Below, piece after piece: positions 33,738-35,411 of a DNA stretch of 41,473 nucleotides. The notes beneath the pieces were generated by a model. It made no database searches, was not told the origin of the DNA, and saw only the letters and a list, made by a program, of their open reading frames with translations. The DNA lies in IMG/VR virus record IMGVR_UViG_3300049215_000197, positions 1 to 41,473 of that record, one strand, 5' to 3'. The stretch is from a virus. Position 1 is the stretch's first letter; every line of letters starts with the position of its first letter. The translations under genes were made by a program, and so were the position numbers.

Positions 33738-34027
33738 ACGAGCATTTCCCTCTTCTTGGCCTTAACGTATTCAAGGTACTCTTTAATCTCTCTGTAATGC
33801 CATTTACGCGTCTCAAGGGCTAATACCTCTTCCCGCACCTCTTGCTGCTTAAGAAGGAGCTTGTGCATCTTTCCATTAAGCTTAACGTTGATGTCGTCAA
33901 GGTACTCGATGAAGATGCGTATTGACTTCTCCATAGCTTTCATTTGGTCCTCAATAGGAGCCTTCTTCATCCGTAACTTGCGGAGCTTATTTAAAGTGAG
34001 CTCGACACTTGGCTTAAGTCTTACCAT
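33734..34027 (-). CDS. Coiled-coil protein (97 aa)
   Basis: ORF overlapping the RusA stop. Lys/Glu heptad-like composition. Confidence 0.6.
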   Translation of the reverse strand: MVRLKPSVELTLNKLRKLRMKKAPIEDQMKAMEKSIRIFIEYLDDINVKLNGKMHKLLLKQQEVREEVLALETRKWHYREIKEYLEYVKAKKREMLV

Positions 34028-34505
34028 TTATGAACTCCTCGCTCTCAAGGATAGCACCCTTTATATCAAAAGCATTAATGATATCTTTATCAAATGATTG
34101 AATGAATACCCTTGTTTCGCCTTCAGGGTACTTAGTCCAAGACTTGTATCTAAGGACACAGAAGAGCTGGGAGTCATCCTTCCATACAAGGCCTTTGAAG
34201 CAGTCATTAACTAGCTTCTCAAGGTTATCGCCGTCTGGCCTTATCGCGTGCGGTAGGAATTCGCGCGCTGGGGGTTCTACGAGCTTTGAGCTTCGGGCGA
34301 GTGGCATGCGAAAATGGATAACCATTAGTAATGGCTTCAGGAAGGGCACATGACTTGTCTCCTTTACGTACTCTTCCACGTAAGCTTTTACTTTGCTCAT
34401 GCCCTTGTGCGAAGGGTTGTAGGCTCCATATTTGCCTAATCTTACTGACATCTTCGGTACAGGCGTAAACGGGATGCGAATTGTGAATGTCGACATAGTG
34501 GTCAT
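34014..34505 (-). CDS. rusA: RusA-family Holliday junction resolvase (163 aa)
   Basis: RPDGDNLEKLVNDCFKGLVWKDDSQ carries the catalytic Asp cluster of RusA. The upstream part matches the F..P..P...P/R..fold pattern. Confidence 0.75.
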   Translation of the reverse strand: MTTMSTFTIRIPFTPVPKMSVRLGKYGAYNPSHKGMSKVKAYVEEYVKETSHVPFLKPLLMVIHFRMPLARSSKLVEPPAREFLPHAIRPDGDNLEKLVNDCFKGLVWKDDSQLFCVLRYKSWTKYPEGETRVFIQSFDKDIINAFDIKGAILESEEFINGKT

Positions 34506-34962
34506 ATCTCATAAATTTAAATTCTGTTCTAGGTTTCGCAGAGTAAATCTTCTGCATTTCTATCTTAACCACTTGCTTGTAGGTAGCAATGATATGGCTA
34601 TGAATAGTTTCAAGGAAAAAAAGAAGGTAGTCCGCCAGCTCGAAACTGAGAGTTGCAGGTGTAAGCTCATCCTTTAAACTTTTTTGACTTATCTTATGTC
34701 CAGTGGGAGGAGATACAAAGAATGTGATTTGCAAAACCACTGGTATTCGTGAATCAAGATAGCTGTTAAAGAAGGCTTTCAAAATATTCTTCCATCGCGG
34801 GTCCCGTTCATACTTAGAACGGTTAGACGGACTACCAAGCTCGTATTTCAGCGAATAGAGTGAAGGCTCCTCAGGCATAGTGAATACCGCAGTGACCCCC
34901 TCGGAAGGGAGCCTCTGTAGCTTTCTTATCTTCATCTTCTTGATGAGTGCCTTAAGGTCCAT
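34225..34962 (-). CDS. RusA-like paralog lacking the catalytic aspartates. The domain ends near 34505, and the ORF then runs on for 93 codons in an alternative frame over rusA.
   Basis: ...VVLQITFFVSPP...SFELADYLLFFLETI...TYKQVVKIEMQKIYSAKPRTEFKF aligns by eye to RusA blocks, with D replaced by E/A/T/Y. There is no stop in this frame until 34225. Confidence 0.5.
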   Translation of the reverse strand: MDLKALIKKMKIRKLQRLPSEGVTAVFTMPEEPSLYSLKYELGSPSNRSKYERDPRWKNILKAFFNSYLDSRIPVVLQITFFVSPPTGHKISQKSLKDELTPATLSFELADYLLFFLETIHSHIIATYKQVVKIEMQKIYSAKPRTEFKFMRYDHYVDIHNSHPVYACTEDVSKIRQIWSLQPFAQGHEQSKSLRGRVRKGDKSCALPEAITNGYPFSHATRPKLKARRTPSARIPTARDKARRR

Positions 34963-35092
34963 ACACTTCTACTGTCCCCATTACTTCTTTTATGGTACGC
35001 ATGTAGTCATCTACATCGCTGAATTCTATCTCTGTGCATGTATCTATTACTTTCTGATACATTTTCACCCAGTTACTAAAAGGAGAACTCAT
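34952..35092 (-). CDS. Small protein (46 aa, from MSSPFSNWVKMYQ...)
   Basis: Internal ATG of ORF 34952..35170 that avoids most of the overlap with the upstream gene. Confidence 0.35.
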   Translation of the reverse strand: MSSPFSNWVKMYQKVIDTCTEIEFSDVDDYMRTIKEVMGTVEVYGP

Positions 35093-35411
35093 CCTTATCA
35101 GCGGGTGGTTGGGAATGACCAGAATTATGTGCTCCATTATTCTCCTCGTGTCTAAGAGCTTCAAGTACAAGCTCTTTAATAGTTTCGTTCAGGATATCAT
35201 TATCAATTTTCACTAAGGGGAAATACTTAGGCTTAACACCTTCCGCACCTTTCACTTCCTTCTGTGGGAAGTTGAACCATTCTTTATCTGTCATCTTGAA
35301 ATGCTTGCAGTCACTGAATATGAAGCCAATTGGTAACACCTTCAGTGTAAAACTTGCCTTAAGTGAGCCCTTATTTATAGCTCTATAGTTACTGATCTCT
35401 ACTGTTGTCAT
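35076..35411 (-). CDS. Hypothetical DNA-metabolism protein (111 aa) with an SSB-like acidic C-terminal tip (DKDEFSF)
   Basis: Position in the replication operon. The C-terminal tail resembles the SSB DDDIPF-type interaction motif. Confidence 0.4.
   Translation of the reverse strand: MTTVEISNYRAINKGSLKASFTLKVLPIGFIFSDCKHFKMTDKEWFNFPQKEVKGAEGVKPKYFPLVKIDNDILNETIKELVLEALRHEENNGAHNSGHSQPPADKDEFSF

Follow-up and report, generated by a model that had tools for sequence, protein, structure and literature searches.

The window analysed in this study, the whole 41,473 nt of IMG/VR virus record IMGVR_UViG_3300049215_000197, is a complete 41.5-kb virus record with terminal repeats. On its minus strand, in a tightly packed operon behind the gene of a DnaB-like helicase, lie two genes of apparent RusA ancestry, designated here as U (upstream) and R (downstream), and the reading frame of U continues far beyond its own conserved domain into R. 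Simulation and comparison of related loci showed that the U frame is kept free of stop codons by selection and that the DNA shared by the two genes is a genuine dual-coding stretch. Taken together, the data were interpreted, with a probability of roughly 75%, to mean that R is a normal RusA and U a decayed RusA paralogue whose translated, basic and disordered tail overprints rusA under selection. The operon is the replication/recombination operon of this phage lineage, and the phages carrying the U family are uncultured and about 40 kb in size. The features concerned are the following.

34225-34962, minus strand: U gene, a 245-aa open reading frame (ORF) with a degenerate RusA-like domain and an overprinted tail
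34468-34902, minus strand: predicted RusA-derived folded domain of U, about residues 21-165
34225-34467, minus strand: U tail, residues 166-245 plus the TAA stop, overprinted and predicted to be disordered
34014-34496, minus strand: R gene, 160 aa from the conserved ATG at 34496, predicted intact RusA resolvase
34014-34505, minus strand: longer form of R, 163 aa, from an extra in-frame ATG at 34505 that is specific to the window
34225-34496, minus strand: dual-coding stretch of 272 nt (281 nt if R starts at 34505), with R in the +1 frame of U
34509-34511, minus strand: R-frame TGA, two codons ahead of the first R ATG
34224-34238, minus strand: predicted catalytic motif PDGDN of R, residues 90-94 of the 163-aa form
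34173-34178, minus strand: second acidic motif of R, DD, within WKDDSQ

The initial annotation of this region had described an upstream ORF that overprints 281 nt of rusA in a +1-related frame, with a TGA of the rusA frame just before the rusA ATG and beside a TTTAAATTTA run. The ORF list and the junction sequence agree with the overlap and its frame, and both the TGA and, next to it, the TTTAAATTTA run are present. In the U frame the junction reads GAA TTT AAA TTT ATG AGA TAT GAC CAC TAT GTC, and in the R frame (+1) it reads TGA GAT ATG ACC ACT ATG TCG. At its other end, the U ATG shares 11 nt with the stop of a preceding 72-aa ORF. No promoter-like and no terminator-like site was found on the coding strand within the U-R pair.

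Two origins had been proposed for the overlap, genuine overprinting or a 1-nt indel, and related loci were used to decide between them. An exhaustive phmmer search of 1.84 G cluster representative proteins retrieved 96 U homologues, which represent 96 clusters at 50% identity. A word-indexed protein search gave one U homologue of 312 aa, encoded on a 3.2-kb Logan contig (locus L002), in which the U-like ORF overlaps a RusA ORF by 434 nt, R again occupies the +1 frame of U, and the R-frame TGA is found at the same place. Pattern scans added 28 IMG/VR loci and a further 26 in metagenomes from JGI and elsewhere, bringing the total with L002 to 55 loci, 42 of them distinct. In every one of these, the frame of U, a protein about 30-50% identical to that of the window, continues into a RusA-like gene, with R always in the +1 frame relative to U. 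The R ATG has the same alignment position in 54 of the 55 loci, inside the codon of a near-invariant tyrosine of U, Tyr156 (TAT G, or CAT G in two lineages), and it persists even at loci where U has His in place of Tyr. Tails of 70-109 codons were found in 63 of 87 family representatives that are mutually less than 50% identical, with a minor mode at 40-49 codons, and an overprint of 70-105 codons is kept in most related loci. Family members of 299-312 aa had been considered as candidates for in-frame U-R fusions; these were rejected, being extra-long overprints instead. The single locus without the usual R ATG, L040:1313-2264, reads CAG TAC ATC at that position; there the open RusA frame extends upstream as far as a GTG at 1743, and the overlap amounts to 338 nt.

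The recurrence of layout, frame and R start across these loci supports the reading of genuine overprinting and refutes the other, by which a 1-nt indel, as an assembly error or in a pseudogene, fused the U frame onto rusA. Since the same layout and frame occur in all 55 loci, an indel private to the window record is excluded; the window agrees with the consensus of the family, as to frame, start position and tail length, over 55 independent assemblies, and the conserved domain of U itself reaches about 10 residues beyond the R ATG. The probability left to an indel is thus virtually nil.

Whether the open frame could have arisen by chance was evaluated by simulations that left the RusA protein unchanged and sampled synonymous codons according to the codon usage of each genome itself. 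The U frame stayed open across the overlap in only 4e-5 to 2.5e-4 of the simulations for the window, in about 1e-4 of those for L002, and in 5e-5 to 1e-3 of those for most long-tail loci. In the window, 18 codons could end in T and thereby create a stop in the U frame, and none of the 18 does so; after the U stop, the same frame contains 14 stops in 71 codons. Over all scored loci, the U frame past the U stop has 0.097 stops per codon (346/3561), and a geometric null built on this downstream frame gives a probability of 8e-4 for at least 70 open codons and 5e-5 for at least 96. The openness observed past the R ATG is at least 70 codons in 69% of the distinct loci and at least 27 codons in 95%. 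Synonymous sites are saturated between lineages (identity 0.39); therefore, the open frame has been maintained in many lineages and not just inherited once.

A neutral origin, in which the open frame would simply result from the local base composition in this RusA subfamily, would agree with the third positions of the overlap being T-poor overall (12-14% versus 28%). However, T use is normal in the short-tail members of this subfamily, which carry 3-8 stops in the same columns, before or within the PDGDN region; in stop-making contexts of alignment columns 45-100, T was used in 26 of 62 cases in short-tail genes versus 0 of 87 in long-tail genes. In addition, stops are numerous in the +1 frame of this stretch, and the long-tail genes regain T use (37%) right after the U stop. 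These comparisons make a purely compositional origin highly improbable.

Depletion of T was not confined to contexts that would create a stop. A T at the third position of a RusA codon is the first base of a U codon, and its use differed with the amino acid that it would give in the U frame: 0.18 in the overlap versus 0.42 outside for Phe, 0.13 versus 0.41 for Tyr, and 0.21 versus 0.49 for Trp. This two- to three-fold depletion had p values of 1e-4 to 1e-7, which are approximate, as the composition statistics count related sequences as independent. The effect was smaller for Cys and Leu and least for Ser (0.28 versus 0.39). In non-stop contexts as a whole, T use was 24-25% in long-tail overlaps; beyond the U stop of these genes it was 37%, and short-tail relatives had 41% in the corresponding columns. 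Because aromatic codons are avoided in this way, the translated product itself seems to matter. The tail of the window is rich in Ala, Lys, Arg, Ser, Pro, Thr and Glu, has a net charge of about +13 over the last 81 residues (165-245; 19 Lys and Arg versus 6 Asp and Glu), and received pLDDT (predicted local distance difference test) values below 50 at residues 166-223 in an AlphaFold2 (AF2) model; it therefore resembles what a translated, disordered and hydrophilic appendage would look like.

The gene underneath appears to be an ordinary one. R matched Pfam family PF05866 with an expectation (E) value of 4.9e-14 and 53.4 bits, against a gathering cut-off of 22.8, over profile positions 1-121 of 124, and a six-frame scan gave the same result. 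In E. coli RusA, the catalytic residues are D70, D72, D91 and K76. The segments RPDGDNLEK and WKDDSQ of R contain the three catalytic Asp plus the Lys, the positions being assigned by family alignment and not from a structure. The initial annotation of ORF 34014..34505 as an intact RusA with an Asp cluster is thereby upheld, and by these features R is a normal RusA Holliday-junction resolvase with the Asp triad, like the E. coli DLP12/phage 82 RusA (structures 1q8r, 2h8c and 2h8e) in lying above the family gathering threshold and in its D-x-D-N and DD motifs. Among GenBank phages, the best matches to R were proteins of Lacticaseibacillus phages, only 25% identical. The TAA stop of U is built from the GAT AAC (Asp-Asn) codons of the PDGDN motif, and in most long-tail relatives the end of U falls inside PDGDNLEKFLND.

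For U, the relationship to RusA is more distant. The N-termini of the family are alignable (MxLKxxI...), and among the 96 members the conserved part always ends near residue 165, although most members are 220-250 aa long. The blocks VVLQITFFVSPP, SFELADYLLFFLETI and TYKQVVKIEMQKIYSAKPRTEFKF, through which the upstream ORF had been aligned with RusA, are present in U. Profile searches did not refute its placement in the RusA family: PHROG 140, annotated as RusA-like Holliday junction resolvase, was matched by all 21 U members searched, nearly over the full length and with a best E value of 3e-9, whereas Pfam RusA was matched weakly by 12 of the 21, the best E value being 0.0014 and all lying under the cut-off. 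The best PHROG 140 match spans U residues 21-185 and profile positions 41-204, and R matches the same profile collinearly. In the AF2 model, which was built from 21 locus-derived sequences, residues 60-160 had pLDDT values of 70-89 and secondary-structure elements in the order beta-beta-beta-alpha-beta-alpha-beta-beta, which is the order in RusA. A Foldseek search with this model ranked E. coli RusA first (2h8c_B, 2h8e and 2h8c_A, E values of 6e-5 to 5e-4); the RusA matches, 1q8r included at E values up to 2e-3, had a probability of 1.0 and a template modelling (TM) score, by target, of about 0.5 (0.49-0.52 over about 139 columns for the first three). U is thus predicted to have the RusA fold.

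Searches by tblastn from the U family also reached stand-alone proteins that are strong members of PF05866 (E values of 1e-37 to 7e-11). They share with U the C-terminal block Q(I/V)VKI..EKYYSxNPR, and U is collinear with them. By this alignment, U resembles another RusA subfamily more closely than it does R, and hence the U-R pair is not a recent tandem duplication; the RusA subfamily possessing EKYYSxNPR is probably the ancestor group of U. Loci L057-L067 represent such stand-alone RusA genes (PF05866 matches up to E 1e-37) with the motif EKYYSxNPR(T/V/I)E, and one of them, L066, encodes a 292-aa RusA with a long C-terminal extension. The positions of U that correspond to the RusA active site are as follows.

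34627-34644, minus strand: FELADY, U residues 107-112, degenerate counterpart of the RusA motif D-x-D-N
34573-34587, minus strand: ATYKQ, U residues 126-130, counterpart of the RusA motif DD-x-Q

The statement that the acidic catalytic residues of the upstream protein are replaced was correct in part. It holds for the third Asp, since the RusA DD corresponds in U to Ser or Thr followed by an invariant Tyr128, a register anchored by the shared block Q(I/V)VKI..EK.YS..PR and given also by hhalign; the RusA Lys, too, is lost, being Leu, Ser or Phe in U. It does not hold to the same extent for the first two positions, where an invariant Glu108 stands at or next to the first Asp, and the second Asp is replaced by Ala or Cys with a near-invariant Asp111 one position on, the register being shifted by one residue in hhalign. 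When aligned with PF05866 proteins, U lacks the catalytic Asp triad plus Lys, and on this alignment it is a RusA-derived protein with a degenerate active site. U is therefore like RusA in predicted fold, order of secondary structure, collinear alignment and the C-terminal block of one RusA subfamily, and unlike RusA in having Tyr for the third Asp, no Lys, first two acidic positions that are altered or shifted, and scores under the Pfam threshold. It is further set apart by an N-terminal extension of about 20 residues, an inserted helix (93-98), another helix at the C-terminus and the disordered tail of 80 residues.

Several features of the junction bear on how R is translated. In most relatives, a GGGA or GGAG sequence is located 8-12 nt 5′ of the R ATG and is supplied by the Trp-Asp/Glu codons of U. 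No Shine-Dalgarno match was found at the R start of the window (34471-34521, minus strand, examined), while most other genes of the phage have one (GAGG, GGAG or AGGAG). Among the first 18 loci of the viral set, the R-frame TGA precedes the R ATG by 2-5 codons in 10 and by 19-31 in the remaining 8, in which it was counted as absent from the junction. This TGA arises as a by-product of the Met-Arg codons of U, which read ATG A... The bases between the R-frame stop and the R ATG vary, and TTTAAATTTA is unique to the window among the related loci. As judged from the conservation of its ATG, which lies within the Tyr156 codon of U, R has a translation start of its own.

A programmed +1 frameshift at the junction, giving a U-R fusion and possibly aided by a tRNA with a four-base anticodon, would be in keeping with the position of R in the +1 frame of U at every locus and with the presence of such a tRNA gene in the genome: ARAGORN predicted, at 22522-22593 of the window (minus strand), a tRNA with the anticodon cgat in an 8-nt loop, which would read AUCG. 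However, U contains no in-frame ATCG, and a link to this tRNA was therefore rejected. Against a frameshift also stand the conservation of the R ATG at 54 of 55 loci, the variable junction bases with TTTAAATTTA in the window only, and the absence of any conserved -1 slippery heptamer (X XXY YYZ) and of local RNA structure at the junction, and of any in-frame fusion in the family; moreover, a frameshift there would give no reason for 90 further open codons in U. This explanation is therefore very improbable. Across the 39 listed genes of the window, 23 in-frame ATCG were counted; thus a true quadruplet reader would disturb many genes.

Several results weigh against the view of U as a decayed paralogue with a selected tail. 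With regard to the domain, the U protein of the window taken alone had no Pfam match and lay below every curated threshold, its match to PHROG 140 being weak (E 0.01), and the AF2 model, with a mean pLDDT of 63.7 from 21 sequences only, is moderate. In hhalign, U and the neighbouring R family aligned in the expected register without significance (P 0.086); BLAST of U against R was not significant, and no PDB sequence was retrieved with a profile of the U alignment. That U is catalytically dead is a reasonable inference from alignment alone. With regard to joint action of U and R, no natural in-frame fusion of the two was present among the 96 representatives. With regard to the tail, about one third of the lineages have shorter tails (15-52 codons) that are scattered over a star-like tree of U domains; the long tail is therefore dispensable or has been lost repeatedly. 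The tail has no conservation of amino acid sequence beyond the shadow of RusA motifs, the apparent motifs LQS/LQP and ARRRQS being RusA YNP and PDGDN read one base off. Third positions of R are no more conserved inside the overlap than outside (identity 0.39 versus 0.40); therefore, the classic signature of dual coding is absent. In one close pair of loci (L014/L017), 33 of 34 changes synonymous in R alter the tail; another (L018/L019) contradicts this with a two-fold reduction, the substitution counts in these pairs being too few. The treatment of related sequences as independent, mentioned above for the composition statistics, belongs here as well.

The conservation of openness and not of tail sequence is also what would be expected if translation itself through the 5′ two-thirds of rusA were selected and the tail peptide were not, with U-frame ribosomes covering mRNA that would be poorly translated in the R frame and guarding it against Rho-dependent polarity or decay, or tuning the use of the buried and weakly signalled R start. 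Such a role would agree further with the R ATG of the window having no Shine-Dalgarno sequence, unlike most genes of the phage, with the location of the pair within a packed operon without internal promoter or terminator, and with a tail that stops wherever the first permitted stop occurs in the PDGDNLEKFLND region. However, it does not predict the depletion of T for Phe, Tyr and Trp (weaker for Ser), there is no local RNA structure around the R start for ribosomes to open (z 0.09), and masking of a start site needs a few codons of overlap, not 90. Selection for translation only is the main rival of the preferred reading and was considered quite unlikely.

In the preferred interpretation, a decayed paralogue with a selected tail, U and R would be two RusA-family genes standing head to tail in a phage operon, and U would continue beyond its own fold through about 80 codons, in the -1 frame relative to R, over the N-terminal two-thirds of R, usually to end inside the PDGDNLEKFLND motif of R. 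The tail probably arose by overprinting on the older RusA frame and, when translated, would form a basic, intrinsically disordered appendage of a non-catalytic, RusA-like junction-binding protein. More speculatively, U may act together with R, either by pairing with it in a heterodimer or by modulating how junctions are bound and cleaved; in that case, the physical overlap would keep the two genes linked and make the expression of both depend on a single mRNA stretch.

RusA-type resolvases, characterised by Mg-dependent cleavage of Holliday junctions, are regarded as simple homodimers. A more specific proposal, by analogy with other nucleases, is that U and R might be obligate partners in a heterodimer with one active site, a phage counterpart of Mus81-Eme1 built on the RusA fold. 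Such an enzyme would resolve junctions asymmetrically, by nicking or with a directional bias; the U tail would clamp or target DNA, and the overprint would be an evolved device that keeps recombination from separating the partners and couples their synthesis to a single part of the mRNA. This proposal is tentative and, on balance, unlikely. The strict co-occurrence of U and R (55 of 55 loci) is compatible with a complex and is not a test of one. Pairs of an active and an inactive nuclease paralogue with one active site per heterodimer are represented by Mus81-Eme1 (Mms4) and XPF-ERCC1. In Mus81-Mms4, such a pairing of active and inactive paralogues has been described (PMC2367710). The likeness to Mus81-Eme1 and XPF-ERCC1 is that a structure-selective nuclease is encoded with a catalytically degenerate paralogue of the same fold; these systems differ in belonging to another fold family, in being eukaryotic or archaeal and in having genes that do not overlap.

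In several relatives, the downstream RusA copy itself is without some of the catalytic residues. Their metagenome twins are L041/L042, L055 and L046, and the copies themselves are the following.

L012:3452-3916, decayed R copy
L015:3443-3928, decayed R copy
L026:3449-3940, decayed R copy
L020:3458-3913, decayed R copy

The motifs seen in them are PHMQYFDD...YTPES, PEPQYFDD...YTPES, PPELEDLF...WERDC and PDGNSLEN...WKNDAQ. With the catalytic residues of R lost, these phages thus possess two degenerate RusA-fold genes each. The shortest U tails are those of L012 and L015, both of which have a decayed R. If the heterodimer proposal were true, relatives that have lost Asp residues of R would be junction-binding, non-cutting derivatives.

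Out-of-frame overlapping genes are familiar in phages from lambda Rz/Rz1 and from the A/B and D/E pairs of phiX174. As in these, two frames are encoded by one DNA, and the newer frame is compositionally biased, poorly conserved and largely disordered over the older one; the U-R overlap differs in that the overprint extends the upstream gene at its C-terminal end and is not an embedded gene, in that it lies over a nuclease, and in that it joins members of the same family. Long out-of-frame overlaps with demonstrable selective maintenance are, to our knowledge, seldom encountered among phages with double-stranded DNA, and as a rule they are put down to errors of annotation or sequencing. Frameshift fusions of the programmed type, such as G/GT of phage tail assembly chaperones, dnaX and prfB, likewise involve adjacent frames offset by one base, the first of them within a phage operon, whereas U-R has no slippery site or conserved stimulator, an independent R start and a U frame that is open long past the junction. 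Overlapping genes, RusA and pseudo-enzyme partners are each known; the tail of a degenerate RusA paralogue lying over an intact RusA, in dozens of lineages, is a new combination, and a literature search retrieved no report of a RusA overprint or of a RusA pseudo-paralogue partner.

The overlap represents a well-replicated case, with divergent lineages and an internal control in the short-tail members, for the birth of a disordered segment on an old enzyme frame, and is suited to asking what is selected when openness and composition are kept and sequence is not. The U family, with its 96 clusters at 50% identity and no Pfam name, can be described as a putative degenerate RusA paralogue always found with an intact or decaying RusA, a pairing that raises the idea that RusA-type resolvases can work with a pseudo-enzyme partner. 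For annotation, gene callers and curators should not 'repair' or truncate the U ORF.

As for the distribution of the family, GenBank phages yielded no match at the nucleotide or protein level to the region, to U or to the U protein of one relative; a scan of GTDB species genomes with the U-family alignment gave no relative, and therefore no host or prophage copy was identified. One contig, JGI24890J29729_1000045 (111,109 nt), carries the U-R locus three times (L032, L033 and L044), spaced 40,332 nt apart; it has the appearance of about 2.75 concatenated genome units of a 40-kb phage and not of a 111-kb genome. Between the DnaB-like helicase gene and U, the window has an ORF of 111 aa at 35076-35411 (minus strand) with an acidic tip, DKDEFSF, at its end; a counterpart of similar sequence occupies the same position in L002:1348-1779.

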